29,490 nucleotides of DNA from the IMG/VR virus record IMGVR_UViG_3300042347_001054, positions 1-29,490 of that record, one strand, 5' to 3'. The notes under the pieces were generated by a model, which was given only the letters and a program-made list of their open reading frames with translations, was not told the origin of the DNA and did not search any database. Below, in pieces: positions 5,359 to 25,000 of the stretch. Numbering within the stretch: position 1 is the first letter of the stretch; every line of letters begins with the position of its first letter. The translations under genes were made by a program, and so were the position numbers. The stretch comes from a virus (lineage: Duplodnaviria; Caudoviricetes).

Positions 5359-7644
5359 ATGGAAGGCGAAGCAATTGATTTGGGGCATGCTACGGCAGGT
5401 GGCATCCGTTCAGACGGCCTTCAAAACGTGCTGATTGGCATGGGGACTGGTCGTGATAAGAGTCAGTACACGAAAACTACGGCCACCGTCTTCCTGCCGC
5501 AAGAGGACCTTGAAAATCTCTATGGCGAATGGCTACCTCGTCGCATTGTTGACATCTACGCCGATCAAGCCACGAGGAAAGGCTTTAAAGTGTTGTTCGG
5601 TGGTGACGGCGTAAGAGCCGAAGAAGTGCAAGGCATTGAACAAACGATTGAAGACCTCTACATTCTTGAACAGCTCAACCTTGCAGCCAAAAACTCCCGC
5701 CTTTATGGGGGTGCTTGTCTACTTCTCTTTATTGACGATGGGCGTCCCGCTTACATGCCTGTCGATAAACGTAACATCCGTCGCATTGAAGAAATTGAAT
5801 GTCTTGATAGATGGCAAATTGCCCCAGTTATCAACGAAGAAAACTTATACGACTATTCAAAAGCCACTTATTATCAGATCATCTCTGGAGATTTAATTAA
5901 CGAGCCCACGCTCACTTATATTCATAAAGATAGGATTTTACGTTTTGATGGTGATTGGCTGCCTTATCGCGTGAGACAGCGTAATTATGGTTGGGGCATG
6001 AGCAGTTTGCAAACTGTTTATGACAGCTTCCGTCATTATTGGACGGGCCTTAATTCTGCTGCAACGCTTCTCACTGAATTTGACATTTTTGTGCATAAAG
6101 TGAGGGGCTTAGCTGCGATGCTTGCGGCTGGAAAGGAAAGCTCCATTCGTGATCGTTTGCAGGTGAATGATATGAGCAAGAGCATTTATCGCGGCTACGC
6201 GATTGATGCTGAAAAAGAAGAGCTTGAATTTATTAGTCGGAACTTTGGCGGCATCGGGGAAATTTTAGAAAAGCTTCGCGTGGATATTATTGGCGCCAGC
6301 AAAATTCCTCATACTGTTCTATTTGGCGAAAGCCCTGGCGGCTTGGGCTCCACTGGTCGCAGTGAAGAGCGTGATTTCGCAAAAACCTTAGCGGATTACC
6401 AAGGCACGCATTTTAAGCGTCCTGTCAAGAAGCTAATGGAATACATCATGCTTAGCAAAGAAGGCCCAACGAAGGGAGAGCTTCCCGAATCATGGCGCAT
6501 CTCTTTCAATCCATTGTTCGAGCTTAATGAGCGCGAAATGGCTGACGTAAGGGCTCGCGTGGCGGCTGTAGATGGCCGTTACATTCAGCTTGGCGTGCTG
6601 AGTCCGAAAGAAGTGGCGGACGCTCGTTATGGTGGCTCTGAGTGGAGCATGGAGCTTACTCTGGATCCATCTGTCATTCGCGAGCTTCCCACTCAAGGCG
6701 GGGGTGGCTCCACTCAAAATGGGGGTGGAAATGGAGGCAAGCTTGCTGTTCCTCCTGGTGGGCGTGATCCAATGAATGAAGAAAATGGCACGCTTCCCAT
6801 GGATGGAAGCAGGGAAGTGGAAGACAGCCGGGAAGATAGTGCTGCTGGCCTTTTCTTGCCTCGTGATCTAGAAGAAATTCGTGGTGACGTAAAATTCACC
6901 GATGCCGAGCTTCATTCTCGTGCGGTGAGTGCCGCCAAGGCAAAATTTAAAGTGTGGCCTTCTGCCTATGCAAGTGGCTATGTAGTGCAGCAATACAAGC
7001 AAATGTACAAGAAGAAGCACGGATCCCTAGCTGGCGCCTTCAAGAGCGACGAAGGTGATTTGCACGCAGATGATCTTGACAGATGGTTCAAAGAAAAGTG
7101 GGTGAGGATTGGAGCCAATGGTGAAATCCTTGGCCCTTGCGGCGCTCGCGAAGAAAAGGAAGGCAAGCCTAAATGCCTTCCTCAGGCAAAAGCTCAGGCC
7201 ATGAGCAAAGAAGAGCGTCAGACAATCGTGCGCCGCAAGCGAGCTGCAGATCCAGACCCTGAGCGTAAGGGACCGGCAAAAATGGTCAGCAGCAAAACGG
7301 ACGCCCAAGATCCGAGTATTCACATGTACAAAACGCAACAAGAAGCTGAGGCCACTGCTGCGAAAATTGGATGCGAAGGCTATCACGTTGAGCAAACTGA
7401 AGATGGCCCTGTTTACATGCCCTGCTCAACCCACGCTCTTTTTGAGAAAAAGCATAAAGAATTTGTATCTCAAAAACAAGATGCGATTGAACCCTTGAAA
7501 ACCAGCGGACTCATTCTTGCTGATATTGACGAAGCTTCTCTCATTGATGAAGAGGACATTTCCGCTGCATTGAATCAATGGAAGGAGGAAGCGCCTGAGC
7601 GCTTCAAGGATATTCTGGAGGCAGAGGATGTCCAGCCTCAATGA
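5359..7644 (+). CDS. Portal protein (DUF1073/HI1409-like) with long multi-domain C-terminal extension
   Basis: DGLQNV..GMG, RRIVD..A...TRKG, SRLYGG, IHKDR, IIGASKIP..VLFGESPGGLGSTG and F.PL motifs in residues ~1-435; residues ~436-761 are a linker plus small domains. Confidence 0.9.
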   Translation: MEGEAIDLGHATAGGIRSDGLQNVLIGMGTGRDKSQYTKTTATVFLPQEDLENLYGEWLPRRIVDIYADQATRKGFKVLFGGDGVRAEEVQGIEQTIEDLYILEQLNLAAKNSRLYGGACLLLFIDDGRPAYMPVDKRNIRRIEEIECLDRWQIAPVINEENLYDYSKATYYQIISGDLINEPTLTYIHKDRILRFDGDWLPYRVRQRNYGWGMSSLQTVYDSFRHYWTGLNSAATLLTEFDIFVHKVRGLAAMLAAGKESSIRDRLQVNDMSKSIYRGYAIDAEKEELEFISRNFGGIGEILEKLRVDIIGASKIPHTVLFGESPGGLGSTGRSEERDFAKTLADYQGTHFKRPVKKLMEYIMLSKEGPTKGELPESWRISFNPLFELNEREMADVRARVAAVDGRYIQLGVLSPKEVADARYGGSEWSMELTLDPSVIRELPTQGGGGSTQNGGGNGGKLAVPPGGRDPMNEENGTLPMDGSREVEDSREDSAAGLFLPRDLEEIRGDVKFTDAELHSRAVSAAKAKFKVWPSAYASGYVVQQYKQMYKKKHGSLAGAFKSDEGDLHADDLDRWFKEKWVRIGANGEILGPCGAREEKEGKPKCLPQAKAQAMSKEERQTIVRRKRAADPDPERKGPAKMVSSKTDAQDPSIHMYKTQQEAEATAAKIGCEGYHVEQTEDGPVYMPCSTHALFEKKHKEFVSQKQDAIEPLKTSGLILADIDEASLIDEEDISAALNQWKEEAPERFKDILEAEDVQPQ

Positions 7645-8309: not shown

Positions 8310-9032
8310 ATGGACGTTTTAGTTGGCAGCACGGGTCTCATTGGACAAGTGCTCCGTGAGGCGCATGAGTTTGGCGCCTGCTTCCATTCCAAAAACATTC
8401 ACGAGGCTCCACTGCTTAAGGAGCCCATTGAAAGGCTGTACTTGGCTTGCATGCCAGCGGAGAAATGGAAAGCAAACGCTGCGCCACTGGACGACTTTGA
8501 CAATATGAATAACATCATTCAAAACATCCGACATCTTCCAAGCCCAGCGGAAGTCATTGTTTATTCAACGATTGACGTGCATGGGCAAACAGCGTATTAT
8601 GCAGACGGCACGCCTGAAATTTTTGCTATTGACTACGGCACCAATCGCTACATCTTTGAAATGCTCGTGAAGGCGGTATTCCTTGATTCAGTGGTGACAA
8701 TCATTCGCCTTCCTGCATTGTTTCATCGCCTTATTAAGAAGAATATTCTGTTTGATCTATTGACAAACAATAATGTGGAGAAGATCAATGCAAACTCTGC
8801 CTATCAATGGTATTGTTTAGATGATCTATGGAAGGACACGAAGAAAGCAATTAGTGGCACTACGAACGAATTTTACACAGCTCCCATTGAAACAGCGGAA
8901 ATCGTTGAACGCTTCTTCCCTGACGCGAAAGTAGGCAGTGGACCACGCATTGAATACAACATTCCTCCATATAAATATGACAAGGCGAAGATAATGAAGA
9001 AGATGGAGGCTTTTATCAATGCTTGGAATTAG
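8310..9032 (+). CDS. NAD(P)-dependent epimerase/reductase-like (atypical extended SDR)
   Basis: GSTGLIG Rossmann motif, YSTIDV, YGTNR (YxxxR in place of YxxxK), IIRLPALF. Confidence 0.75.
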   Translation: MDVLVGSTGLIGQVLREAHEFGACFHSKNIHEAPLLKEPIERLYLACMPAEKWKANAAPLDDFDNMNNIIQNIRHLPSPAEVIVYSTIDVHGQTAYYADGTPEIFAIDYGTNRYIFEMLVKAVFLDSVVTIIRLPALFHRLIKKNILFDLLTNNNVEKINANSAYQWYCLDDLWKDTKKAISGTTNEFYTAPIETAEIVERFFPDAKVGSGPRIEYNIPPYKYDKAKIMKKMEAFINAWN

Positions 9033-9759
9033 CGCTATCGGCTGGAAGGATGAAGAGGAGGAGCAGATTTTAAGCGCAAATGCTGGAGCGTTTAATGTGC
9101 TAGAAATTATTCCTGCGCGTATCTTTGCTCAAAACAAAGACTATGCCGATATTGCCAAAGAATACCGCGAAAGCTATGGGCTATGGGCCTATTCGGCGCA
9201 GGCTTTATTCTTTCAAAGTAACGTGCAAAGCTTTGAAGACACTGCAGCAGTGTCCGAGCATTTGTTAAAAGTGATCAGCCTTGGCTCCCTCATGGGAATC
9301 AAGCGCTTCGTACTAGGTAGCCCCGGCTTGAGAAAGGGAAGTCCTTCCTGTTTGATGAATGTTCTGAAGCGCATGGATGCAGTGTTGGATGCAAATGGAG
9401 CCATTCTTTGCATTGAGCCTGTAGCGAAATGCTACGGAGGCTCTTATTTCTTCACAGTCAACGAGATTGTCAATCACATTGATTTTTGCAATTTGAAGAA
9501 TGTTAAGACGATGCTTGACACGAATAACGCTTGGCTTCAAGGCGATAGCCCTAAAAAGCTACTGAATCATTATTGGCCATACATTGCTCACGTGCATATC
9601 AGCGACACTGACAATGGACCGCTGCTAAATAAATACGAGCACAGGCAAATTAAGGGAATGCTTGATGGTATTAACTACGAGGGCGCGATTGTGCGCGAGC
9701 TATTTCAAGCCAAGAAGAATATGCGCGACTATCCGCTGTTCCGCAGCATTTACGCTTGA
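9019..9759 (+). CDS. Xylose isomerase-like TIM-barrel sugar isomerase/epimerase
   Basis: Metal-ligand pattern CIEP, MLDTNN, HVHISD, VRE; FVLGSP motif. Confidence 0.8.
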   Translation: MLGISAIGWKDEEEEQILSANAGAFNVLEIIPARIFAQNKDYADIAKEYRESYGLWAYSAQALFFQSNVQSFEDTAAVSEHLLKVISLGSLMGIKRFVLGSPGLRKGSPSCLMNVLKRMDAVLDANGAILCIEPVAKCYGGSYFFTVNEIVNHIDFCNLKNVKTMLDTNNAWLQGDSPKKLLNHYWPYIAHVHISDTDNGPLLNKYEHRQIKGMLDGINYEGAIVRELFQAKKNMRDYPLFRSIYA

Positions 9760-10727
9760 AACATGGCTTCTTTTGCCATCTCTTCGATGGCATAGATGCC
9801 TTGAATTTTGCCAGTGTAAAAAGACAGCAGATTATCCTGTTGCCTAAAAATGGGAACGCGTTGAGCGCTGGCGTTTTTGCATTTTGCTTTAATTGATACC
9901 ACAAGGAATGCGTATTTAAAATAATCATGAAACTCGGACCAGTAGCGCACCACGTGATCCTCGATTAGCTGGCGCTTTTCCTTCAGTTGACCATAATTTT
10001 TGCTGAAACAATTTGTTTCTTTTTGCTCAATAACGCCAAGCTTCACATGACTCAGCGAGAACATTGAAGATCCGTATGGATAGATGGAGAACAGCTCGCC
10101 ATCAATAAAAGTGAGTGCGCCGAATGGGGGCGTTTTGATGGGACGATAAACAAACATTGCCACTGCCTCAAAATAGTCCCCATCAAGAATTGGCAGCAAG
10201 GAATTGTTTGTGCAATCAATGACGAAATCATAATCTTGCTTCAAAAAAGCAAGTGAATTGTCATTGATTTCATCCCTTCTCGCAATGGGAGCCAATAGCT
10301 CATCAAAGTAATTGCCAGCGGCAGTTGGAGAAATATATTTCTCAATGGTATGTAGAAGCAGTGAGGAACGATTAAGGAAGTTCGCATCGGCTTCCGCGTG
10401 TGGCCAATCTTTAAAAATAAGGCGAATCGTTTCTGCGTCCAACAAGCTTTCGTCTTCTGACACTGCATAGAAATTATTCTGCACGTTTTCCGTTAGATGG
10501 CCATAGTCCATCATGAACTGTTCAAACGTATTCCTGCACAACATGCGCGTGGCATGATTCCTGGCGTAGTGATAGCCATAGTGCAATCGGTTCTGATTGA
10601 TTAACGATGCTTCGGAGATGAGCATTTCATTGCGCTCAAACAAAGTCACATCGGCTTTGTTCATCAAGCGTGAAGCTAAATGGCACCCCGTCCAGCCACC
10701 ACCGACGATTGCAATCTTAAGCGCCAT
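9750..10727 (-). CDS. FAD-dependent oxidoreductase (DAO-like)
   Basis: IAIVGGGWTG...LFER dinucleotide-binding fold, ASLINQNRLHYGYHY motif, C-terminal GKI; ATG 10727 overlaps the upstream TGA. Confidence 0.85.
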   Translation of the reverse strand: MALKIAIVGGGWTGCHLASRLMNKADVTLFERNEMLISEASLINQNRLHYGYHYARNHATRMLCRNTFEQFMMDYGHLTENVQNNFYAVSEDESLLDAETIRLIFKDWPHAEADANFLNRSSLLLHTIEKYISPTAAGNYFDELLAPIARRDEINDNSLAFLKQDYDFVIDCTNNSLLPILDGDYFEAVAMFVYRPIKTPPFGALTFIDGELFSIYPYGSSMFSLSHVKLGVIEQKETNCFSKNYGQLKEKRQLIEDHVVRYWSEFHDYFKYAFLVVSIKAKCKNASAQRVPIFRQQDNLLSFYTGKIQGIYAIEEMAKEAMFQA

Positions 10728-11416
10728 CAAATGTCAATGCAAAGCGTTGGCTGCACTCCTTGCCAATTTGACTTGGCCTTGAATAAGTCCAACTGTGGGA
10801 AGTATTCTATGCGGCGAGGCATGCCGGTTCCATAGACATCAGCATGCCCTTGATAGTTCCATTCATCTGGGCCATGCTTGTTTGGGTGGTAAAGGCCAGT
10901 AGGTGAATCCTGCAGTTTCCAGAGCATGTAGTCCTCGTTAGGCACTCCCCATTGTTTCCATGCTTGCAACGCCTGTGGTGAGCTGTCCATGTTCTTAATC
11001 GCCATGAGACGGTCCTTATGGTGCATGAGGTAGTCCATGCTGTAAAGGCCAATGCTCATTGATGGTGTATGTTTCATCGCCACCTTCTCAAAACCTTCTG
11101 GAGGGTCGTAGGCAAGGCTTTTGAAGGCAGGCCCAGCAATGCAAGTGTCGTGAAGGAGAAACCAGAAGGGGCTTGTCAGATGGTGTTCAACAATTTCAAT
11201 GAGGGGCGCGTATTCAAAAGAGTTTTGCGGAGTGCAAATCATCGGCACATCGCCATAATGGTCAATTTGCCAATTCTCTTGACCCCCATTGACGATCAAG
11301 ATTTCGTCAGTACTGATACCTGCACGAGTGAGAGAAGGGATAATTACAGGCAGCGTATGAACAGCAAATTTATTACAGGTGCTAATGCAGAAGCGCACAG
11401 AAGACGGTGGCAACAT
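10727..11416 (-). CDS. Putative GT-A fold (GT2-like) glycosyltransferase
   Basis: FCIST...IIPSL...ILIVNGG N-terminal strands and WFLLHDT DxD-like motif; SD AGGAG upstream. Confidence 0.6.
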   Translation of the reverse strand: MLPPSSVRFCISTCNKFAVHTLPVIIPSLTRAGISTDEILIVNGGQENWQIDHYGDVPMICTPQNSFEYAPLIEIVEHHLTSPFWFLLHDTCIAGPAFKSLAYDPPEGFEKVAMKHTPSMSIGLYSMDYLMHHKDRLMAIKNMDSSPQALQAWKQWGVPNEDYMLWKLQDSPTGLYHPNKHGPDEWNYQGHADVYGTGMPRRIEYFPQLDLFKAKSNWQGVQPTLCIDI

Positions 11417-11478
11417 GACTTTCTCCTTGTGCCGTCAGTATAGAAGCTGCTTATGATGACGAAGATTCCAAGAGAAAC
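11417..11478. promoter_or_regulatory. Divergent promoter region inside the glycan island
   Basis: Minus-strand TATACT (11437-11442) and plus-strand TATGAT (11452-11457) between divergent glycosyltransferase genes. Confidence 0.45.
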
Positions 11479-12702
11479 ATGGCAAAAATTCTCTACGCTG
11501 GCGACGCATTTGTAGAAACGGGATTTGGGCGAGTGGCCCAATACCTGTTACCTGCTCTGGATGAGAAGCATGAAGTGGTGGTGATGAGCACGAACTACCA
11601 CGGTGACCCTCATCCCGAGGCGAAGAAATATAAGGTGTATCCAGCCATGCTGCATGGATCCGATCCGTTTGGGTCGCATCGCATTTCTGAAATCATTCAG
11701 AAGGAAAAACCTGATCTGGTATGGGTGACAAATGATATTTGGGTGGCGCTTACTTTATGGGACAGGGCGAAGCCATTCAAGGAGCAAATTGGGTTTAAAT
11801 GGTTTGTTTACACTCCCATTGATTCCTATGGTTTATTTCCTGAGTTAAACGCGAAGATGCAAGAATGGGATGGTCTCGCCACCTATACGCTATTCGCAAA
11901 TAACGAATTAATTCGCATGGGTTATGACAAGACAGTTGACATCATCGGCCACGGCACTGATTTTGAAAAATTCTTTCCACTTGACAAGCAGCAATGTCGT
12001 CAAGAACTTGGCGTGCCGCAAGACGCATTTATCGTCTTCAACGGCAACAGGAATCAACCGAGAAAGCGCATTGACCTTACGCTGAAAGCTTTTGTTAAGT
12101 TCGCCAAAGATAAAGACGACGCTCGCCTGTGGTTAAACATGGGCAGCAAAGACTTGGGATGGGACATTATCCCGTTGTTCAAGCGAATTGCTCGCGACGA
12201 GGAGCTTGATCCTACTGGCAAGCTTATTCTTACTAGTCCTCATTTTTCCACTGATAATTGTTTGCCAGTGGAGCAACTGAACAAAGTATACAATGCGGTT
12301 GATGTGGGCATCAATACTTGCATTGGTGAGGGTTGGGGCTTGGTCAATACTGAACATGGCTCCGTTGGCGTGGCGCAAGTTGTTCCCGACCATACAAGCT
12401 TGGCTGAAATTTTTGACGAACTGCCACGCATTACTTGCAACGCCTCTGAGACTGACCGCAATTATGGTCTTGAGCGTCTGCTTCCTGATCCCGAGAGTGC
12501 TGCAGAAATCTTGTCGTATTACTACGAAAACCGCAATGCACTGAAGAAAGACGGGCAATGGTGCTACAAGCGTTTGCATGAAGAGCCATTTACTTGGCCG
12601 TATATTCAGCGGCAGTTGCTTGGCGTGGTAGAACGCACTCTCAATGCAAAGGCCGCTGAGCCCGAATTTAAAGGCTTTGGCACTCCCGCAAAAATTGCTT
12701 GA
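11479..12702 (+). CDS. GT-B fold glycosyltransferase (GT4-like)
   Basis: TGFGRV N-terminus, GHGTD, NRNQPRKR, YNAVD...EGWGLVNTE (E-x7-E) motif. Confidence 0.9.
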   Translation: MAKILYAGDAFVETGFGRVAQYLLPALDEKHEVVVMSTNYHGDPHPEAKKYKVYPAMLHGSDPFGSHRISEIIQKEKPDLVWVTNDIWVALTLWDRAKPFKEQIGFKWFVYTPIDSYGLFPELNAKMQEWDGLATYTLFANNELIRMGYDKTVDIIGHGTDFEKFFPLDKQQCRQELGVPQDAFIVFNGNRNQPRKRIDLTLKAFVKFAKDKDDARLWLNMGSKDLGWDIIPLFKRIARDEELDPTGKLILTSPHFSTDNCLPVEQLNKVYNAVDVGINTCIGEGWGLVNTEHGSVGVAQVVPDHTSLAEIFDELPRITCNASETDRNYGLERLLPDPESAAEILSYYYENRNALKKDGQWCYKRLHEEPFTWPYIQRQLLGVVERTLNAKAAEPEFKGFGTPAKIA

Positions 12703-12704
12703 TC

Positions 12705-13421
12705 ATGCAAATTTCACAAATCTTCCTTTCAACTGATCCGTCAGAAGCGCTTAGCCCTTTTCTAAAGCACGCTACGGGAACTATTGACGCATGCTTTTCC
12801 GAGGCGAAGCATGTTATTTACAACAGCGACTCACTTCGCGCCTTCATTGCTGATAACTATGAAGAAGAAGTGTTGTGGGCTTACGACACGCTCAAACCGT
12901 TTTCTTACAAAGCAGATCTTGGTCGTTTCTGCTTGCTAAACAAGCTTGGTGGCTGGTATTTTGATATTGGCGTGAGGGCTTTTAATGCAGTGGAGCTTGG
13001 TGAGCGCATCAAGTTTCTTGCCTTCCGCGACATTCAGCGTTTTAGCTATACAAGCTGGGCATGCGCTACGACAGTGCTTTATTCTCAGCCCGATAATCCT
13101 GCGTTGCAAACTGCCATTGAAATGATTGTGGCAAATTGCGTGCAACAATACTATGGCATCACTCCATTGTGTCCTACTGGCCCCACGCTGCTTGGTAAAG
13201 CTTTGGCAGCGAATGGAAGCCAAGCTGATTTTATTTATGGAGACTATCTTGAACTGACGCCCACTCACGGCCAAAAGAATAGGGCTTTCGTTCTGCCTGA
13301 TGGCACGATCATGGCATGGAGTAAGCCTGCTGGCGGTGGCGATTTGACGGGACTTGGCGCTAAAGGCGTCAACAATTACAATGAGCTGTGGCAAGCTCGC
13401 AAGGTGTATGGCGATGATTGA
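12705..13421 (+). CDS. GT32-like glycosyltransferase (DXD sugar-binding region)
   Basis: KADLGRFCLL..LGGWYFDI and TGPTLLG motifs. Confidence 0.85.
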   Translation: MQISQIFLSTDPSEALSPFLKHATGTIDACFSEAKHVIYNSDSLRAFIADNYEEEVLWAYDTLKPFSYKADLGRFCLLNKLGGWYFDIGVRAFNAVELGERIKFLAFRDIQRFSYTSWACATTVLYSQPDNPALQTAIEMIVANCVQQYYGITPLCPTGPTLLGKALAANGSQADFIYGDYLELTPTHGQKNRAFVLPDGTIMAWSKPAGGGDLTGLGAKGVNNYNELWQARKVYGDD

Positions 13422-14124
13422 TAGCACAATCTATGCGGTTTGCATTGCTGGCGAGAAAGTGCGTTACACGGCCAAGTCTCGCATTGTGCCAATCATGGGG
13501 GGAAGTTATGCGTTAACTGACGACGAGCGCGAAAAATTGCGCTTAGAAGGCTATGTTTTCGACGACGAAAATGCTTTTCTTTCTGGGCTAAATAGTCGCT
13601 GTGGCGAACTGTCTTGCGTGCATTGGATGATTCGCAATGCCAATGAAAGCAATATTGGCAATGCCCAGTATCGGCGCAATTGGATAGAGCCACAAGGTGA
13701 ATGGTATTGCCCAGAAACGCTTTACTTGCCTGAGCCTGCTCAATTTTCTTGTACTCTTGAGCAACAATTTTATGGAGGACATTCTGCTTTTGATGCACCA
13801 GCGATCACGCGAGAATTGGCCGACACAAAAGAATGGCTGTTTTCTCGGGAAGAAATAGATCAGATATGGGCGCAGTCTTCATTTATTGGCTGCAACATGG
13901 CGCGTGGCCCACGGCAAAGTTATAAGCAGTTTATGGGAATTCTGCTTTCGGCATTGGGACCAATTTGGCTTAAGCATAAGGAGCATTTTCGTTCCATTAA
14001 TGGTTATGACAAGCGTGCAATTGCTTTTATTGCAGAACGCTTGATTACTGGCATGGTTTTATGCAGGGATAGGATTTTGCCAGGCGTTAAGATAGCCACG
14101 GCTCCGATAGGATTTATTAATTAA
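13414..14124 (+). CDS. DUF4422-like glycosyltransferase
   Basis: N...GELS..HWM..N...IG..QYRR, CNM and R...FIAERL motifs; ATG 13414 preferred over the TTG at 13354. Confidence 0.75.
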   Translation: MIDSTIYAVCIAGEKVRYTAKSRIVPIMGGSYALTDDEREKLRLEGYVFDDENAFLSGLNSRCGELSCVHWMIRNANESNIGNAQYRRNWIEPQGEWYCPETLYLPEPAQFSCTLEQQFYGGHSAFDAPAITRELADTKEWLFSREEIDQIWAQSSFIGCNMARGPRQSYKQFMGILLSALGPIWLKHKEHFRSINGYDKRAIAFIAERLITGMVLCRDRILPGVKIATAPIGFIN

Positions 14125-14142: not shown

Positions 14143-14406
14143 ATGACTACAAAAGAAAAGCAAGCAAAAATTGCTCGTGTTCTTCGCGAATTTAAAGCTG
14201 GCACTCTTAAGGGTAGTGGCGGTGAGAAAATTAAAGACAGAAAGCGTGCAATTGCCATTGCTCTTTCAGAAGCTGGTATGAGTCGTCAAGGTAAGAGCGA
14301 TGCCTATTGGGACAATTATTTCATGACTCTTATTGGCGAAGAGGAAGAAGAAGAGGAAGAGGGCATGGAAGAAATGGAGGACGGTTCCTGCGGAAAAAAG
14401 CGCTGA
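14143..14406 (+). CDS. Small basic protein (DUF6496-like) with acidic tail; zero-frame product of a frameshift gene
   Basis: KIARVLREFKAGTLKGSGG.KIKDRKRAIAIALSEAG followed by a poly-Glu stretch; ends GGA AAA AAG CGC TGA. Confidence 0.8.
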   Translation: MTTKEKQAKIARVLREFKAGTLKGSGGEKIKDRKRAIAIALSEAGMSRQGKSDAYWDNYFMTLIGEEEEEEEEGMEEMEDGSCGKKR

Positions 14407-14433
14407 GGGGTGACGCCGAAAGCTTTGCCCCTC
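14376..14433 (+). other. Programmed -1 ribosomal frameshift signal (head region)
   Basis: GGAGG 14376-80, in-frame A AAA AAG 14394-14400, hairpin 14405-14433. Confidence 0.8.
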
Positions 14434-14753
14434 CTGCCGCTGTAAGAGCCGCTGCTCGCCGTGGCTTAGAACTACGCAAGAAACATGGCAAGGGAGGCTT
14501 GACGACGCAGGAAGCGGGCAAGCAAGGCATTGGAAGCGGCGTTGCTCGTGCGACAAGCCTGGCCAATGGCGAGAAGGTGAGCTATGAGACCATTAAACGC
14601 ATGGCCGCATTTTTCTCAAGGCATGCCAAGAACAAAAGTGGCGGAGAGGATGATGCTGGTTATATCAGCCATAATTTATGGGGCGGCGATGCTGGTAGGG
14701 CGTGGGCAAATCGCATCATTAAGATGGTAGAGAATCGCAGAAAAGACCAATGA
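14400..14753 (+). CDS. -1 frame extension: basic phage head-associated domain
   Basis: ALRGDAESFAPPAAVRAAARRGLELR...GVARA..LA.G...S.ETIKRM..FFSRH...LWGGDAG.AWA; no plausible start codon of its own in front of the domain. Confidence 0.75.
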   Translation, partial: ALRGDAESFAPPAAVRAAARRGLELRKKHGKGGLTTQEAGKQGIGSGVARATSLANGEKVSYETIKRMAAFFSRHAKNKSGGEDDAGYISHNLWGGDAGRAWANRIIKMVENRRKDQ

Positions 14754-15061
14754 GCGAATACGTGCGTGTTATCGAAGAAGAAGACGAAGGCATTGGTCTT
14801 TTAAAGGCTCTCTCTATTCTTTCCGCTAACGAGCATCGCAACACTTCACGATGGGAACTAGTGGAGAAGCAGTGCTTTAAAAATGGACGACTAGATGAAA
14901 CGCACATCTATGTAATGAGCGTTTACGAAAAGCCCGACCCTCATTTTGAACCGACAAAGTTTTTGACGTTTGAAATTGAGGCAATGGCAAAGTCCTACAT
15001 TATGGAAGACATTGAAAATCAACTTGCCAGCATTCGCGGCGAAGACGATGATGAGGACTGA
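14750..15061 (+). CDS. Hypothetical acidic protein (103 aa)
   Basis: ATGA overlap with the upstream stop. Confidence 0.7.
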   Translation: MSEYVRVIEEEDEGIGLLKALSILSANEHRNTSRWELVEKQCFKNGRLDETHIYVMSVYEKPDPHFEPTKFLTFEIEAMAKSYIMEDIENQLASIRGEDDDED

Positions 15062-15099: not shown

Positions 15100-15375
15100 C
15101 TAATTGATCTTTGCAATGAATGATGGGTAGCCCATCAGCCACAGCACACTAATCCCATAGAGACCGCTGAGCGTGCGAATTTGTACGCAATCTGGCGGGG
15201 CTGTGCCTTTTTCAATGCGGCAATAAGAGCTTTGACTGATGTGAAGTTCTTTTGCTACGTCATGTTGCGTGAGTCCAGCATTAAGCCGAGCCTCCTTAAT
15301 GCGGCTTGCAATAAGAATACGAGCTTCTTGGTGGGGAAGTTTAAGAGCATCCGTCGTGCTACGTGCCAAAAACAT
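15100..15375 (-). CDS. XRE-family helix-turn-helix regulator
   Basis: RIKEARLNAGLTQHDVAKELHISQSSYCRIEKG...LYGISVLWLMG. Confidence 0.92.
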   Translation of the reverse strand: MFLARSTTDALKLPHQEARILIASRIKEARLNAGLTQHDVAKELHISQSSYCRIEKGTAPPDCVQIRTLSGLYGISVLWLMGYPSFIAKIN

Positions 15376-15406
15376 CACGATGATTTATTCCGTTTTGCAT
15401 AAGCCT

Positions 15407-15439
15407 ATAAAGTATAACATTCGCTTCTTGATAAAGTAT
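15407..15439. promoter_or_regulatory. Divergent extended -10 promoters overlapped by an ATAAAGTAT direct repeat
   Basis: Minus TG-T-TATACT 15411-19; plus TG-A-TAAAGT 15429-37; ATAAAGTAT at 15407-15 and 15431-39. Confidence 0.5.
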
Positions 15440-15443
15440 GAAT

Positions 15444-16637
15444 ATGAGCACCATTTCTTGCCGATACGATTTCTCTCCTATTGAGAAATACGAACTCACG
15501 CCAGAAGGTTATCTTCGGGCATGGGCTTCAATCGCACGCACTGGCATCCAACACTACACAGATAGTGATGGCTCCATTCGTCGCGAATATCGTCCTGAAA
15601 CAGAAGTGGCGTCTCCCGATAGTCTTGCTTCATTCGCGGGCAAGGCAATCACTTCTGAGCATCCGCCTGTACTGCTCGATTCTGAGAATACTAAGGACTA
15701 CCAAGTAGGCTTTAGTGGTACTGAAGTGGTGTACGACAATGGTTTTGTCAAGGCAGTGATGACAATCACTGACGAAGACACCATCAAGCGCATCATGAAA
15801 GGAGATGCTCGTGAGGTAAGCGCGGGCTATAGGGTGAATTATGATCCCACGCCTGGCGTTACAGAAAACGGTGAACATTACGATGGCATCCAAAAGGAAA
15901 TCATCGGCAATCACATCGCTGTTGTTCGTCGGGGCCGCGCTGGCCCGCAAGTGAAGCTTCATCTTGATAGGCAAGATGCTGCTGACCCATCATTGATCTC
16001 TAATGGAGGAGACCATCTCATGACGGCAAAAGTCGTTTTTGATGGCGCCGAGTTCGAGGTGACTGAGAGCGTTGCTCTTGCAATCACCAAAGAACGCGAA
16101 GACGCCAAAATGTCCTACGAGGACATGAAACAAAAGTACGATGAAATGATGTCCAAAGCTTCCAAAATGAAGGAAGAGATGGACGCCATGGAAAAGGAAA
16201 TGCAAGGCAAGTGCGATTCCGCTGAGGGTCGTGCTGACGCCCTGGCTGAGCAGGTGGAAGAGCTGAAAGGCGAACTTGCTGCTGCTCAAGAAATCAACCT
16301 TGATTCCATGGTTGAAGAGCGCGTGGCTCTCATTGAGAAAGCCAAGCCTGTCCTGGATTCTGCTTATGAATTTGCTGGCAAAACTGCCCGCGAAGTGATG
16401 GTTGATTCCATCAAAGCAGTGCGTGGTGACGAGCTTGATCTTTCTGAGAAGAGCGATGACTACGTGCAGGCAATGTTCGACACTCTTTCCGAAGGTCGTT
16501 CTGACTCTGCCACCACTGACGAGCTGCGTAAAGCCGTAGCTTCCATTGCTTCTCCTGTTTCTGCACCCTCTGCCTATATGGATATGCTGCAGAATGCATG
16601 GAAGAAGCCCCTTTCCATCTCCAAGGAGGCTAAGTAA
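15444..16637 (+). CDS. Prohead protease/scaffold fusion (DUF2213-like)
   Basis: TPEGYL, IARTG.Q.Y, YRP..EV, IT.EHP, EVSAGY, NHIAVV..GRAG N-terminal domain; coiled-coil acidic C-terminal half. ATG 15438 is an alternative start. Confidence 0.88.
   Translation: MSTISCRYDFSPIEKYELTPEGYLRAWASIARTGIQHYTDSDGSIRREYRPETEVASPDSLASFAGKAITSEHPPVLLDSENTKDYQVGFSGTEVVYDNGFVKAVMTITDEDTIKRIMKGDAREVSAGYRVNYDPTPGVTENGEHYDGIQKEIIGNHIAVVRRGRAGPQVKLHLDRQDAADPSLISNGGDHLMTAKVVFDGAEFEVTESVALAITKEREDAKMSYEDMKQKYDEMMSKASKMKEEMDAMEKEMQGKCDSAEGRADALAEQVEELKGELAAAQEINLDSMVEERVALIEKAKPVLDSAYEFAGKTAREVMVDSIKAVRGDELDLSEKSDDYVQAMFDTLSEGRSDSATTDELRKAVASIASPVSAPSAYMDMLQNAWKKPLSISKEAK
16020..16637 (+). CDS. Probable nested in-frame scaffolding protein (205 aa)
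   Basis: GGAGGAG at 16005-11 lies 8 nt before an in-frame ATG at the protease/coiled-coil boundary. Confidence 0.55.
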   Translation: MTAKVVFDGAEFEVTESVALAITKEREDAKMSYEDMKQKYDEMMSKASKMKEEMDAMEKEMQGKCDSAEGRADALAEQVEELKGELAAAQEINLDSMVEERVALIEKAKPVLDSAYEFAGKTAREVMVDSIKAVRGDELDLSEKSDDYVQAMFDTLSEGRSDSATTDELRKAVASIASPVSAPSAYMDMLQNAWKKPLSISKEAK

Positions 16638-16639
16638 TC

Positions 16640-17200
16640 ATGGCCGTAACTTTCTCTGCTTCGGGCACTGCCTCCGCTGGTGGCGTGCAACAGAGCTATG
16701 CTCTGGAGCACACTGCACTGCTGGAAGGTCAACTGTCTGACATTCGCGACAACACCATCGGCACCTACATCAACGAAACTGGCGCTGTGCTGCCTTTCGG
16801 TAATGTGGTTGTCTACAACACCGCTGGCACTGCTGCAAACTCTGCTGCTACCATCTCTGGCGCTTCTGACACCGTTCAGGGTATCAACGTTCTCACTTAC
16901 GTTGATGAAACCGCTCTTGATTCCAACAACCGTCCTGGTGTGAAGAATCAGCAAGTGCTGAACGTGGCCAACGAAGGTGCAGTGGCTGTCTATGTGACCG
17001 GCGCTGTTTCGCCCACTTCGCCTGTGCGCGTGCTGTATTCCGCTAGCGGCACTGGCAAGGCTGGTCAATTCTCGCATGCTTTTGCTTCTGGCAAAACCGT
17101 TCGCCTCGCTGGCGCACGTTTCCTGAGCACCACCACTTCCAGCGGCATTGCAATTCTGGAGCTGAATGGCCCCAGCTTTACTCTTTCCGCTGATTCTTGA
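16640..17200 (+). CDS. Capsid decoration/cement protein
   Basis: Lies between scaffold and major capsid; LPFG..V and G.V.V motifs; strong SD AAGGAGG; A/G/S/T-rich. Confidence 0.75.
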   Translation: MAVTFSASGTASAGGVQQSYALEHTALLEGQLSDIRDNTIGTYINETGAVLPFGNVVVYNTAGTAANSAATISGASDTVQGINVLTYVDETALDSNNRPGVKNQQVLNVANEGAVAVYVTGAVSPTSPVRVLYSASGTGKAGQFSHAFASGKTVRLAGARFLSTTTSSGIAILELNGPSFTLSADS

Positions 17201-17215
17201 TAGGAGGCCCTAACA

Positions 17216-18124
17216 ATGTCTGAATTCCGTATGGATGACGCGGGTCTGTTCCTTGAGCGTCAGCTTGAGTACATCCGCCCCCAAGTGTTTGAAGTGCAGT
17301 ATGCGGATATTAAGTATCCGACCATTCTGCCTGTTACTAGCGAAGCTGGTCCTGGCGCCCAGACCTTCACCTATCGCATCATGGACTCCACTGGTGAGTT
17401 CAAGCTGATCGCTGATGCTGCTGACGATCTGCCCCGTGCTGACATCAGCCAAGTTGAGAAGAGCATCAACATCCGCTCCTTCGGTGGTTCCTTCGGTTAC
17501 ACCGTGCAGGAACTGCGTGCTGCTCAGATGGCCAACATCGCCCTGGAGCAGCGTCGTGCTGCTGCCGTGCGTCGTGCCTATGAGGAGAAAGTGGAAGAAG
17601 TGGCTCTGTTCGGTGAGAGCACCGTTGGCCTGTCTGGTTTCTTCAACAACTCCACCGTAGACGTTGTTGCTGCTGATAAATGGTTCACCGATAGCGGCAC
17701 CACTGCTCAGGAAATGCTTGAGCTGCTGAACTATGGCGTGAGCGCCATTATCAACGCCTCCAAGATGAAGGAGCAGCCCGACACCATCCTCATGGCTTAT
17801 GAGGACTACAACAAGGTGAGCACCACTCGCAACTCCGACTCTTCGGACGTGACTGTGCTGGAATACTTCCTGCGCACCAATCCCTACATCCGTAACGTTG
17901 AGCCCATCAACCAACTGGATGCTGGTAATAGCGTGCTGAATACCAACCGCATGGTTGTGTACAAGCGTGATCCTGAGAAGGTGCAACTGCACATTCCTCA
18001 GCCCCTGGAACTCTTCCCGCCCCAACAGCGTGGTCTTGAGTTCATCGTTCCCGCTCATGCTCGCGTGGGTGGCGTGGCTCTGTACTATCCCAAGAGCGTT
18101 ATCTACGTTCAAGCTTCGGCCTGA
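17216..18124 (+). CDS. Major capsid protein (DUF2184-like, HK97 fold)
   Basis: FLERQLEYI...FE..Y, DDLP, YTVQELRAA, ALFG...GL.GFFN, GGV...YP motifs; strong SD and highly biased codon usage. Confidence 0.92.
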   Translation: MSEFRMDDAGLFLERQLEYIRPQVFEVQYADIKYPTILPVTSEAGPGAQTFTYRIMDSTGEFKLIADAADDLPRADISQVEKSINIRSFGGSFGYTVQELRAAQMANIALEQRRAAAVRRAYEEKVEEVALFGESTVGLSGFFNNSTVDVVAADKWFTDSGTTAQEMLELLNYGVSAIINASKMKEQPDTILMAYEDYNKVSTTRNSDSSDVTVLEYFLRTNPYIRNVEPINQLDAGNSVLNTNRMVVYKRDPEKVQLHIPQPLELFPPQQRGLEFIVPAHARVGGVALYYPKSVIYVQASA

Positions 18125-20812: not shown

Positions 20813-21066
20813 ATATTGACTACCTTTGGAGCGAAGATAAAACCGTGCATGCCATTAACAATGCATTGGACGGTGCAGCGTTGGAAGTAGGCATCTTGTG
20901 TCTTATTTCTTGCCGAGAAGAGACCATTAGAATAAGCAACGAAAATCATTCAATGCTGGTTGAAGTGCCTAAAGAATTTCGCTCTAGCAGCGAAAGAGTG
21001 AAGGTCTTCAATGCATTGTTAACTGTTCTTGATCATGAGCAAATACAGCTTCCTTCTGCAGACTAA
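20809..21066 (+). CDS. Hypothetical protein (85 aa)
   Basis: GTGA overlap with the upstream stop; fills the gap before the chaperone gene. Confidence 0.6.
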   Translation: MNIDYLWSEDKTVHAINNALDGAALEVGILCLISCREETIRISNENHSMLVEVPKEFRSSSERVKVFNALLTVLDHEQIQLPSAD

Positions 21067-21571
21067 AGCCGAAGATTACTTTGAGCTTCTTCCCGAAATC
21101 CGCATGAAGAAATATGGCGGCTGGCTTGTTGCAGAAGCCATTGAGCAAGAAGAAATTAGCAAACTGCAAAGTCAGGCAACCATCCGCGCTGTGCAACTTG
21201 CAAAGAAGATTGCCCTTGCGAAAGACATTCCTCTTGATGAAGCATTTGGCTTGCTTCAGGGCGGTGGTGGGTCCATCACTGAAGCCGAGCTTCTTTCTGA
21301 ATACACAGAAGAAACTCTCAGCATGATTACTAGTGGCTCTTCAGTGGAAAGCACTAACGCTCGCATGGTCACTGCATTCATCCGCTCTCGCGGGCAGGGT
21401 TTGATTGATGGCGAATGGCAAGATCTTGCTGATTGGGAACTGGAAGACACTAAAAATCTTCCTCGTAAAGCCATTGCAAAAGTGGTGGAGTTTATTGCTG
21501 AAGAGCAAAACGCTGAGACGCAGGAGGCAGTGGCGGCAAAAAAAGCGACGAAGAGGAATTCTCCTCAGTAG
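21035..21571 (+). CDS. Tail assembly chaperone (gpG analogue)
   Basis: Acidic ORF upstream of the tape measure with a slippery site near its 3' end. Confidence 0.75.
   Translation: MSKYSFLLQTKAEDYFELLPEIRMKKYGGWLVAEAIEQEEISKLQSQATIRAVQLAKKIALAKDIPLDEAFGLLQGGGGSITEAELLSEYTEETLSMITSGSSVESTNARMVTAFIRSRGQGLIDGEWQDLADWELEDTKNLPRKAIAKVVEFIAEEQNAETQEAVAAKKATKRNSPQ
21523..21566 (+). other. Programmed -1 frameshift signal of the tail assembly chaperone
   Basis: GGAGG 21523-27, in-frame A AAA AAA 21538-44, hairpin GAGGA-ATTC-TCCTC 21553-66; the -1 frame is open into the next ORF. Confidence 0.8.
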
Positions 21572-22011
21572 CAGAAATGCTGGAGGCGCGGGCACGTAAC
21601 CAGCTTAAAAATCTGACCAATTGGAACGAAATTTATTTCCGACTTTCTGCATCGGATTTTAATGATAAGCGATGGCGTGCTGATCAATTTGGTCGGCAGC
21701 CATTGTCCGATATTAAGCGTGCATTGAAATATCTTGATAAGCACGATGTGGCAAAATATAACGTGCAAAGCGTTGCCATTGCAAAGCTTGGCACAATGGC
21801 GGCTGGCATGATGGCAGGACGTAAGTCTAAGGTGAAGCCAGAAGATTTCTTACCATTTGACACAAAAGCTCTTCAAAAAGATAGTGGCATCACTGATGCA
21901 AGCCTGATTGTTCTTCAGCGTTTGATGAAGAGCAGAAGGATGGACGGAAGGGTGATTGCATTACTAGCCGATGATTTAAAGGCTTTTTCTGGGCGTAATC
22001 AGGAACAATGA
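21544..22011 (+). CDS. Tail assembly chaperone -1 frame extension (gpT analogue)
   Basis: -1 frame reads SDEEEFSSVAEMLEARARN...; contains KPEDFLPF; immediately precedes the tape measure gene. Confidence 0.75.
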   Translation, partial: SDEEEFSSVAEMLEARARNQLKNLTNWNEIYFRLSASDFNDKRWRADQFGRQPLSDIKRALKYLDKHDVAKYNVQSVAIAKLGTMAAGMMAGRKSKVKPEDFLPFDTKALQKDSGITDASLIVLQRLMKSRRMDGRVIALLADDLKAFSGRNQEQ

Positions 22012-22045: not shown

Positions 22046-25000
22046 ATGGCAGCTCAAGACGCCGAACTTCAGCTTAAGGTAAGTCTTGACCTGTCATTTT
22101 TTAGGCAGCAATTAGCGACACTGGGAAGTGCGGCTGCTGGCTATCGACTGCCAATCAATATTAAGTTTGATCGCTTATCAATACAAAAAGAGCTTAACAC
22201 TCTTGGAGCCAATATCAAGAAGCGCACTTACCGCCTTAATGTTGAGACAAATATTGCAGCAGAAATCAGCAATGCCGAAAAGCTCGCAAAGGCTCTTAGT
22301 GACCTTGAACAAGCAAGTAAAAAGATTGGAGGCGTCAGCAAGAAAATGGCGCCAACTGGAATGGTTGGCGCTGTTATTGACGACAAAACAACATATAAAC
22401 AGCTTCAGGCTTTATACAAGTTCGCCAAAGAAGCGAACCTTCCATTTGAGCGACTTGCAAAAGGTGCAGCATCTAGCACTGAAGAACTAAAGCGCGTCTT
22501 GAGCGCCGGGTTTGGTGAAATTGGCGATGACGTAAAAGCTGGTATTGGCGCCGCATTAAAAGATGCGACAAGCACGCTTGCCCAGCTAGGCAAAGATATG
22601 GGCGAAACGCTACTCAAGGAAACCAAGAAGAGTCTTGGCATTGCATCGCCTTCCCGCGAATTCAAGAAGATTGGCGAAAACGTTGGAAAAGGCTTTGAGC
22701 TTGGCGCTGTTGGGTCCATGGATAAAGCCTTTGACGCGCTTGAGCGAAAACTTCAAGAAAGGCTTAAGAGGCTGCAGTCAATCCTTAGTCTTGCACCTTC
22801 TCGTCGAAGCGCTTTCCCTTTTGTTGCCACAGGGGGAGCCCTTGAGTCGGGCCCTATTGCGAGAGAAATTGACCAAGCCTATGCACAGATTGCCAAAATT
22901 CAAGAGCGCCGCCAAGGGCGATTAACAGCAGAGCGTGGAAGCTTGGCTCAGATAGCAGGGCGACTTTTGCCCCCCGCTCGCGACAGGTCGTTGCCCGCTG
23001 CTCGTGAAACTATTTTCCCTGGCGGCGGAGCTTTAGATCAAGTTACACAAGGCTTTGTTCAGTCATTAAGAAACACTCGTGACACTCTTGCTCGTAACTT
23101 CTCGGCCAATACTTATCTGCCAAGAGCCACTCGTGCATTAGCTACGTCCATGGACGTAGCTACGAAACAATTGAGTGGCACAAAAATCGCTGGGTTGCTT
23201 CCATCCAAAGAAATGATGGAGCCTTTACGTTTCCAAAGAGCGCAACAAAAAGCTGCTCAGATTGATGCAGAAAATATAGCAAGGGCACAAGCGGAACAGG
23301 CGCTAAATCAGCAAAATCTGCGCGGGATGTTCCAAGGAGTGCCACGTATCAATGCGCCAAGAGTTGGACAGGAAGAGACCCCGATAGGAAGGCACATACA
23401 AAACAAAATTGAACAGGCAATACAAAATGCTCGTCAAACACTAGGTCTTCCTCTCGGTCCTTCTTCTACTTTTGTACCCAGCCCCTTTGCTGGTGCCGCT
23501 ACGGTTCCGCCTCGGCAATTTTTTCAACCAACAATGCAAGCTGCGTTGCCACCAGCGGGAGGAACGGGACCAATTGCCGCAGCTCAGCGGAATATTGCAG
23601 AGATGCAAAAAAACAATGATCGGATGCTGGCGAGCACTAATAGAGCCATAGCGACTATTGACAGAATCATTGAAGCGGGTCGTAGTATAACTGGCAATGC
23701 TCCTTCTGCTCCTTCATCGCAAAGTGGATTTGCTGCTTGGTCCCAGCAAATGACCGCTAAATATGGCGGTGGCAATGTCCCTCCCGTTCCCCCTGTTCCT
23801 CCCGGAGGAGGCGGAGGCGGTGGCGGAGGCATGAGTGGATTTGGCGGCTTTGGTCGTGCGCTTGGCGGCGTTCCAAATCTTCCTGGTGCTGGCACTATTC
23901 GCGAGCTTGGCAGTGAATTTAGCTTTGCGACTAAACAAGTGTTGCTGTTTGGTCAAGCATATAAGCTTTTGGCTTTTATTCAAGATTTTCCTGGTCAAGT
24001 TTCAAGCGCCGTTTCACAGTTGCAAAGCTTTAGAAACACCTTGCTAAGCGTTACTGGTAGTGCTGGCGCTGCCGCCGACGCGAACGAATTCATTCTGGCC
24101 GCTGTCGAAAAATACAGCATTCCATTGCAATCTGCTCGTGATGGCTTTGCAAAATTGTTTGCTTCCATGGAGCCCGCTGGTTTTGCTGCTGGTGAAATTC
24201 AAAACCTTTTCCTGGGAGTTAGCAAGGCTGCTGCTACTTACGGCTTAAGTGCCGACAAGGTGGATCGCGTGAATTACGCTTTTGCTCAGATGGCCAGCAA
24301 AGGTCAAGTGATGAGCGAAGAACTGAAAGGGCAGTTGGGCGATGTGCTGCCTGGTGCTATGGGTATTTTTGCTGAGGCGGCTGGATTTAAAGGGCCAGAT
24401 GCTATTCAGAAATTTAGCAAAGCCTTGGAAGATGGCGTGTATAAAGGTGGCAAGATGCGCGAACTGTTGCGCAATGTTGGCGATGAAATGAACAGGGAAT
24501 TTGGCCCAGGAGCAGAAGGCGCGGCCAAGACTTTCCAGGGCGCCATTAACCGCATGCAAACGGCGACTACAAAGCTATACGAGAGCTTTGAGCCTGCTGC
24601 GATTGGCATCATGAATGCAGTAATGGTGCCATTTGTTCAGACGCTAAAAACCGCCACTGATGGTATTAATGCTTATTTCAGTGGGCAGCAAGCTGCCACA
24701 CCGGCAGCTCAAGAATTTGCGAATGTCCTAAAAACATTGGCACCTACGTTGGTTGGCATTGGTGAGAATCTTAAGTATGTATTCCAGCAAGTAGCAGTAT
24801 TAATCCAAGGTTTTGGCTCTTTTGCGTTGCAAATTGGAAGACTTCTCGCTCTTCCCATTGTTCGTTATCTTGCTGGCGCTTATGTGCAAACGCTTCTTTT
24901 GACAACAGCATTTAAGGCGCTTGCTACAAGTGGCCTTGGTGCCGCTCTTGTCGCAATTGGTCGATTTATTGCGCAGGGAGTTGTATATGCACAAGTAACA

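Follow-up and report, generated by a model that had tools for sequence, protein, structure and literature searches.

A probable -1 ribosomal frameshift outside the tail genes joins a DUF6496 protein to a start-less basic domain in an S-CBS4-like cyanophage

Introduction

How does a ribosome reach a protein domain that lies in an open reading frame (ORF) without a start codon of its own? This question is raised by a locus at positions 14143-14753 of a 29,490-nucleotide (nt) stretch of viral DNA (Duplodnaviria; Caudoviricetes; IMG/VR record IMGVR_UViG_3300042347_001054, positions 1 to 29,490), which was analysed at its full length and is referred to here as the window. At this locus, a short ORF carrying a DUF6496 domain ends just past a slippery heptamer, and a basic domain of 117 amino acids (aa), termed the C-domain, follows in the -1 frame. 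The sequencing runs that contain the stretch are lake-water metagenomes, and, judged from its sequence, the source is a cyanophage of the siphovirus type and a relative of Synechococcus phage S-CBS4. The initial annotation of this DNA had proposed a second programmed -1 frameshift, separate from that of the tail genes, which joins two domains of the head module. The comparison with relatives described here points to the same answer.

Organization of the Locus

Each element that had been claimed for the locus (the heptamer, the GGAGG, the hairpin, the stop codon, and the start-less -1 frame of 117 codons) is present in the DNA, and the features are as follows:

14143-14406, plus strand: ORF1 in the 0 frame, 87 aa, starting with ATG at 14143; a basic DUF6496 domain, an acidic Glu-rich linker and a C-terminal G-K-K-R, ending in TGA
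14376-14380, plus strand: Shine-Dalgarno (SD)-like GGAGG, 13 nt before the heptamer; candidate upstream stimulator
14394-14400, plus strand: slippery heptamer A AAA AAG in the X XXY YYZ register of the 0 frame
14404-14406, plus strand: 0-frame stop codon TGA, one codon past the heptamer
14405-14433, plus strand: hairpin with arms GAGGGGTGA (14405-14413) and TTGCCCCTC (14425-14433) and an 11-nt loop
14406-14413 with 14425-14432, plus strand: conserved helix of 8 base pairs (bp), starting 5 nt past the heptamer
14400-14753, plus strand: -1 frame encoding the 117-aa basic, all-helical C-domain (ALRGDAESFAPP...), with its stop at 14751-14753 and without its own start

Since 14143 + 83 x 3 = 14392, the 0 frame reads GGA AAA AAG CGC TGA and the heptamer lies in the X XXY YYZ phase of that frame. 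Residues 4-44 of ORF1 match Pfam PF20106 (DUF6496) with an E-value of 4.5e-8 and 33.8 bits against a gathering cut-off of 24, while the C-domain matches only one PHROGs family, phrog_2859, whose function is not annotated (E 1.5e-16). The description of both domains as basic is borne out by their isoelectric points (10.1 for ORF1 residues 1-62 and 10.4 for the C-domain), with a value of 4.1 for the linker between them. Upstream of the C-domain, the sole ATG, GTG or TTG in the -1 frame of the window is a TTG located 93 nt before the junction. The predicted products are thus a protein of 87 aa and one of 203 aa (86 + 117) with the junction K-K-A-L-R-G-D.

Split and Fused Genes Among Relatives

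A protein search with the C-domain returned 491 relatives that fall into two length classes, of about 116-141 aa and about 182-204 aa. The shorter class consists of start-less -1 fragments to which gene callers have given invented starts, such as MRKKALRGD. Many members of the longer class carry DUF6496 and are natural in-frame fusions. One of them, P0049, has a DUF6496 score of 31.5 bits and the junction ...SSCGKKALRGDAESF..., which contains the very GKKALRGD predicted for a -1 slip in the window, and P0033 likewise encodes the junction in frame. Other fusions lack the Lys-Lys, as in ...FMEERGDAESF.... P0049 is known as a protein, and the closest IMG/VR loci to it are split forms.

At the DNA level, IMG/VR was searched with three queries, and the best 80 loci of 393, 300, and 308 confirmed relatives, respectively, were taken. 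Together with S-CBS4 and the window this gave 219 sequences, of which 10 were dropped because they were truncated or had no N-domain hit; the remaining 209 represent 114 distinct genes. The C-domain lies in the -1 frame in 83 of these (split genes), is fused in frame in 31, and is in the +1 frame in none. The in-frame fusions that the initial annotation had suggested looking for among homologues therefore exist, at 31 of 114 distinct genes and with the P0049 junction as an example.

A quick IQ-TREE phylogeny of 465 columns, with the junction excluded, requires at least 11 changes between split and fused forms, 5 of which are forced by well-supported branches, and 23 changes when all five states are considered together; these numbers are rough, as the gene is short and phages recombine. 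The tree nevertheless indicates that the split, fused, and heptamer states interconvert repeatedly.

The Slippery Heptamer

At a single aligned position and in the phase of the 0 frame, an X XXY YYZ heptamer is found in 83 of 83 split genes but in only 1 of 31 fused ones. At the other codon positions of these genes, in-frame X XXY YYZ sequences number 37 in 21,003 (0.18%). Three canonical versions are used in the split genes, namely AAAAAAG (62), GGGAAAG (16), and CCCAAAG (5). The 0-frame stop codon follows one codon past the heptamer in 78 split genes, where it is TGA in 51 and TAA in 27; in three genes it follows directly, and in one gene each it follows 15 nt and 42 nt later. The last of these (L135) has CGA in place of the stop codon, and its 0 frame therefore crosses the stem and ends 42 nt further on. 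This layout shows that an immediate stop is usual but not obligatory.

A run of As naturally raises the concern that the split is an artefact or a sign of decay, either because the run was miscounted or because a true frameshift mutation has struck a decaying gene, in which case the real or ancestral gene would be a single ORF. Homopolymer runs are error-prone, in-frame relatives are found in the numbers given above, and the P0049 and P0033 junctions are in frame. In addition, one fused gene (L093), the seven-A counterpart of a different, six-A split type (L023), has kept its stem intact, as if a frameshift allele had recently been converted into a fusion, either in nature or during assembly. 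The indel in the A run that the initial annotation had named as a possible cause was, however, not seen: contigs from four runs span 14394-14399 without an inserted or missing letter, and three of these runs are not flagged as a possible source of the window. A search of IMG/VR found the junction motif with six As in 99 stretches and with seven As in 0. The split is also a -1 split in 83 of 83 cases, never +1, and always at one position, and the domain downstream shows purifying selection in the -1 frame (see below). Of the 83 split genes, 21 use GGGAAAG or CCCAAAG, which contain no long homopolymer, and neither a miscounted A run nor polymerase slippage can therefore explain the pattern across the family. 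Sequencing error and a pseudogene were rejected on these grounds, and an origin of this kind has almost no probability left to it.

Transcriptional slippage is a different proposal, in which the A run causes RNA polymerase to insert an extra A and some of the mRNAs encode the fusion in frame. Slippage on A runs is known in bacteria, and a run of 6-8 As is present at the site in 62 of the 83 split genes. Six As are, however, short for efficient transcriptional slippage, and the GGGAAAG and CCCAAAG sites at the same position could not support efficient slippage by the polymerase. Furthermore, strict X XXY YYZ phasing and a hairpin that is conserved and partly covaries are marks of slippage by the ribosome, not by the polymerase. 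Transcriptional slippage is thus very unlikely to be the main source of the long product, although it may contribute a minor share in the types with an A run.

Reading of the -1 Frame

The same C-domain could in principle be the product of a second gene, translated alone from a weak or non-canonical start, such as the GTG annotated for S-CBS4 gp019, or by termination and reinitiation at CTGA. This idea is not without precedent, as the C-domain of distant phages opens proteins that have their own start and is N-terminal in 58 of 146 representatives, Limnohabitans DC31 and Vibrio 382E49-1 also having their own start. In the split genes, the -1 frame was scanned for ATG, GTG, and TTG from the point where it opens to 14 codons into the C-domain. 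No such codon was found in 58 of 83 genes, ATG was found in 0 of 83, and the codons that do occur share no position. The Val codon used as the start of S-CBS4 gp019 is GTG in only 22 of the 83 genes and otherwise GTA (42, including the window), GTT (18), or GTC (1), and it thus varies freely. The peptide xLRGDAESF[A/S]PP directly past the site is conserved, and since RGDAESF[A/S]PP precedes the annotated GTG, translation must enter from further upstream. The Leu codon that overlaps the stop is likewise variable (CTG in 49, CTA in 20, and TTA in 7, the last two making up 27 of 83), which speaks against reinitiation at CTGA. A start at either the annotated GTG or the stop-overlapping CTG was accordingly rejected as a general mechanism, as the codons vary and no start is conserved.

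Counted upstream from the stop, the open stretch of the -1 frame measures 10-313 nt (median 67), a length that is not conserved. Within the C-domain, codon differences in the -1 frame comprise 33,324 synonymous and 10,419 non-synonymous changes (76% synonymous), as opposed to 2,890 and 41,556 in the 0 frame (6.5% synonymous). This excess of synonymous changes indicates purifying selection on the domain as read in the -1 frame. Two separate genes would also leave unexplained why the 0-frame heptamer is present in 83 of 83 split genes and lost in the fused ones. Taken together, separate translation of the C-domain has only a slim chance of being the rule in this family.

The Downstream Hairpin

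In the window, the hairpin arms form 9 bp, two of which are G.U pairs. A ViennaRNA fold of 14394-14450 returns exactly the predicted helix, with a minimum free energy of -22 kcal/mol (z -2.9) that 0 of 200 shuffled sequences equal in stability. Conservation of this stem was assessed in an ungapped alignment of the 83 split junctions, reduced to 75 distinct rows. Of the cells in the proposed helix, 94.1% are paired; shifting the 3' arm by 1-3 columns lowers this value to 59-73%. Only 45 of 75 rows can form the outermost pair, in which the middle base of the stop codon takes part, and the conserved helix is therefore one of 8 bp. One pair covaries (columns 32-48), occurring as A-U in 35 rows, C-G in 25, U-G in 8, and G-U in 1 and being unpaired in 6; this covariation score is reached by 0 of 500 shuffles. 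The covarying pair joins a synonymous Gly third position with an Ala/Ser first position.

The fused genes serve as an internal control, as they encode the identical peptide with a decayed stem. All of the inner 7 bp are paired in 74 of 83 split genes, compared with 3 of 31 fused genes, in which the stem is broken because the Arg codons CGA, CGC, and CGT and the Ser codons TCG and TCT are used freely. Conservation of the heptamer and of the hairpin in homologues, which had been proposed as a check on the original claim, is thus observed for both elements. These in silico results point to a downstream RNA structure of the frameshift-stimulator type, with a GC-rich stem of 8-9 bp that begins 4-5 nt past the heptamer.

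Separately, the strain variants 14411 T>C, 14414 C>T, and 14417 C>T are seen in contigs of one run (X19); with the first of them, a U.G pair of the stem becomes C.G.

Proposed Mechanism

On the strength of these comparisons, it is very probable that a programmed -1 ribosomal frameshift yields two proteins from this locus, an 87-aa DUF6496 protein and a 203-aa protein consisting of DUF6496 and the C-domain, in a ratio set by the efficiency of the slip. The original claim of a second -1 frameshift outside the tail genes is supported by comparison with the relatives, through the heptamer in every split gene, the stem, the lack of a conserved start codon, selection on the C-domain, and the natural fusions. 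During translation of ORF1, the hairpin 5 nt downstream would make ribosomes pause on A AAA AAG, and a fraction of them would slip back by one base and continue in the -1 frame. Those that do not slip would read CGC TGA and release the 87-aa protein, which comprises the basic DUF6496 domain and the acidic linker. Those that slip would instead read GCG CTG AGG GGT GAC... and add the 117-aa C-domain to give the 203-aa protein. As the non-slipped product is the short one and the slipped product the long one, the efficiency of the shift is proposed to fix the ratio of short to long forms.

The position of the slip site fits this scheme. An AlphaFold2 model of P0049 (mean predicted local distance difference test score, pLDDT, of 86.9) contains two confident helical domains joined by a linker at residues of about 75-92, which has a pLDDT of about 50 and is disordered. 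This model places the slip site within the linker and at the edge of the C-domain, and both products would therefore be whole-domain proteins.

Several points weigh against this reading or limit its reach. With respect to starts, a GTG or TTG is present in the -1 frame of 25 of the 83 split genes, so that independent initiation in a subset is possible; in 10 of these a TTG lies 12 nt before the junction, with an SD-like motif in 6. The upstream stimulator is also ambiguous. At a distance of 5-18 nt before the site, 53 of the 83 split genes have an SD-like 4-mer, as do 12 of the 31 fused ones. The region is rich in Glu codons, and as it encodes the Glu-rich linker, the motif is confounded by coding. 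For the hairpin, the arms encode the conserved R-G-D and F-[A/S]-P-P, so that conservation is partly driven by the protein, and covariation is limited to one pair of the stem. When the association between the split state and an intact stem was tested with phylogenetically independent contrasts, only 5 contrasts were supported and the median p was 0.25, which makes the test underpowered; over 200 random pairings, a mean of 3.1 of the 5 contrasts ran in the expected direction and 0.0 in the opposite one. As for the sample, the loci are best matches to biased queries and the ratio of 83:31 is thus not a population frequency, the relatives are all metagenome contigs with the exception of S-CBS4, and the check on the A run used assembled contigs, which can hide rare variants. 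Proteomics of the S-CBS4 products was not found in the literature searched, and the runs listed as containing the stretch include no RNA run, the three RNA runs listed sharing next to none of its sequence words. Finally, the weakest step is the head-interior location of the long form, which draws on gene position and domain fusions and is taken up in the next section.

The C-Domain and Its Partners

Beyond the S-CBS4-like phages, the C-domain is widespread. At E <= 1e-3 it is found in 3,456 representative clusters, in proteins of 76-1,588 aa and at any position within them. A scan of 30 long relatives identified a Pfam partner in 16 and none in 14. The partners are 2H/LigT phosphoesterase (6) and InPase (5), and, one each, a methyltransferase, topoisomerase I, portal, capsid, DUF5661, DUF6582, DUF5872, and Hva1-TUDOR; these counts sum to 19, and one protein carries both portal and InPase. 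Among the predicted viral structures of BFVD, the fold of the C-domain is found in prohead protease, XkdF, portal, ParB/sulfiredoxin, HAD-like, and TUDOR proteins. The domain has no Pfam match even at an E-value of 10, no NCBIfam match, and no match to the PDB by sequence profile; the best Foldseek hit against the PDB has an E-value of 2.9, and the ESM Atlas returns only unnamed viral clusters, although a distant solved fold may still exist. A family of this size without a Pfam model is a candidate for a new family definition.

In distant relatives, the C-domain opens with K-Y-D-H-I-[D/N]-F-x-P-P, often directly past the initiator Met. R-G-D-A-E-S-F-A-P-P of the window aligns to this sequence, which identifies RGD as the first motif of the C-domain itself. 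The initial annotation had regarded the RGD as a candidate protease site placed right after the shift; this interpretation is not needed, as the alignment accounts for the motif. Among the 146 representatives, only 28 have [R/K]-x-D within the 15 residues upstream of the C-domain, and this is mostly the K-Y-D of the opening motif. Cleavage at RGD may still occur.

It had further been suggested that frameshifting sets the ratio of two internal head proteins. The first half of this statement stands, as a ratio follows from the mechanism, while the internal location is derived from the position of the gene and from the fusions. The long form is predicted to reside in the head interior, as fusions of the C-domain elsewhere involve portals, prohead proteases, and effector-type enzymes. 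A more far-reaching scenario can also be drawn, in which the frameshift acts as an evolvable stoichiometry dial on capsid-delivered cargo. The C-domain, with enzymes of the anti-defence type among its fusion partners, would then be located in the head interior or injected, and S-CBS4-like phages would have switched repeatedly (in at least 5-11 changes, with three heptamers of different slipperiness) between fusion and slippery site, thereby tuning how many of the DUF6496 carriers bear a C-domain. This scenario is speculative and, for now, rather unlikely to hold in full. If true, the clade would be a natural series of frameshift signals gained, retuned, and lost.

Comparison With Known Recoding Systems

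The closest annotated relative of the locus is the gene pair gp018/gp019 of S-CBS4 (NC_016766; YP_005098317 and YP_005098318), whose C-domain is 81% identical and whose local DNA is 67.6% identical. The layout is that of the window, with an ORF of the DUF6496 type, which in S-CBS4 ends in AGA AAA AAG GGC TAA, a -1 frame that is already open ahead of the heptamer, and a stem past it, in S-CBS4 GGGGCGA/TCGCCCC. The neighbours also correspond, with glycosyltransferases upstream and a small ORF, a reverse-strand helix-turn-helix (HTH) repressor, a protease, and the major head protein downstream, whereas the sequence of the linker before the heptamer is unrelated. The record (L001, 2696-3348) lists gp018 and gp019 as two hypothetical proteins and places the start of gp019 at an internal GTG. 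The shared features suggest that the pair is one recoded gene joined at AGA AAA AAG.

The elements of the signal are familiar from bacteria. In the orfA-orfB genes of IS3-family elements (IS911 and IS150), A AAA AAG and a downstream structure give a short 0-frame protein and a long shifted fusion, although the stimulators of IS911 are more complex. The product logic is the same as in the window, but the proteins are transposases and show no homology. Escherichia coli dnaX, which encodes tau and gamma, combines A AAA AAG with an upstream SD-like element and a downstream stem-loop. There, the shift leads to early termination and a shorter product, whereas at the window locus it would give a longer one, and the counterpart of the upstream element is a candidate only.

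Phages offer further parallels. G GGA AAG is the heptamer of the lambda tail chaperone, and the same version is used by 16 of the 83 split relatives. In the tail chaperones G and GT, -1 slippage produces a short and a long form at a fixed ratio (Xu et al., 2004, as described in PMC10885494). The proteins concerned, however, are unrelated to those of the locus, and their genes lie in the tail module, ahead of the tape-measure gene; the window has a separate frameshift of this type at 21538-21544. The locus itself is not directly upstream of the tape-measure gene, and its placement therefore differs from that of G/GT. Capsid genes can also be recoded, as in gene 10A/10B of T7. A -1 frameshift in the major head protein of Lactobacillus phage A2 is cited in PMC10885494. 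Both cases yield two related virion proteins from a head gene, but they extend the major capsid protein; in the window, by contrast, a small DUF6496 protein would gain a separate, mobile domain.

A last point of comparison is the polyvalent proteins, which are multi-domain phage proteins predicted to be packaged and injected, with 131 domains described (Iyer et al., 2017; PMC5512222). Several partners of the C-domain (InPase, 2H/LigT, methyltransferase, ParB, TUDOR, and portal) belong to the repertoire given in that article, although the window protein, unlike the polyvalent proteins treated there, consists of two small non-enzymatic domains only. The word "frameshift" occurs 0 times in the main text of PMC5512222.

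No description of recoding in this gene was found in the literature on S-CBS4, DUF6496, and phage or cyanophage frameshifting, a search that did not extend to the S-CBS4 genome paper (Huang et al., 2012). No paper on DUF6496 came up, and PMC6157547 refers to S-CBS4 and is silent on frameshifting. This agrees with the initial annotation, which knew of none for this gene type. The mechanism itself is a textbook one, and what is added is a gene and not a new kind of system.

Implications

If the proposed mechanism is correct, each ORF pair of this kind, in S-CBS4 (gp018/gp019) as well as in well over 100 metagenomic cyanophage contigs, is probably a single recoded gene and not two hypothetical ones, and gene callers currently assign invented starts to their start-less fragments. 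The dosage of the C-domain would seem to be important enough to be set by recoding. The family also offers a compact natural data set on the gain and loss of a -1 signal, as it combines three heptamers, a stem that is either kept or decayed, and repeated switching. More broadly, the results point to a widespread, unnamed basic helical domain on portals, prohead proteases, and effector-type enzymes.

Genome Setting

The order of the genes around the locus was obtained from Pfam and PHROGs scans of the window proteins:

3423-4793, minus strand: large terminase (Pfam/PHROGs)
5359-7644: portal with a C-terminal DUF5872 and DUF3721 extension (Pfam/PHROGs)
about 8310-14124: sugar-modifying block with a TIM-barrel isomerase-like protein, a flavin adenine dinucleotide (FAD) oxidoreductase, a GT1/GT4 glycosyltransferase, a DXD glycosyltransferase, and DUF4422
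14143-14753, plus strand: proposed frameshift locus, between the glycosyltransferase genes and the head protease
14750-15061: small ORF
15100-15378, minus strand: HTH regulator
15438-16637: DUF2213 head-maturation protease/scaffold
16640-17200: cement protein
17216-18124: major capsid protein
21538-21544: tail-assembly-chaperone -1 frameshift with the heptamer A AAA AAA, in the ORF 21023-21571
22046-28081: tape-measure gene, 2,011 aa

The -1 frame of the tail chaperone is open from 21517 to 22011, continues as GKKSDEEEF, and adjoins the tape-measure gene on its upstream side. The regulator at 15100-15378 is an HTH_3 protein of the Cro/CI type that lies on the opposite strand amid the head module, and its counterpart in S-CBS4 is annotated as a transcriptional repressor.

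In the portal protein, Phage_portal_3 covers residues 51-403 and is followed by a C-terminal extension of about 350 residues with DUF5872 (514-613) and DUF3721 (657-693), which is another instance of small modules added onto a head-interior protein. Homology of the C-domain to this extension was considered and rejected, with a best BLASTP E-value of 1.4.

The sugar block at 8310-14124 sits between the portal and the head genes; its TIM barrel is xylose-isomerase-like, and the FAD oxidoreductase is encoded on the minus strand. At the equivalent place, S-CBS4 carries glycosyltransferases, a methyltransferase, and an HNH endonuclease.

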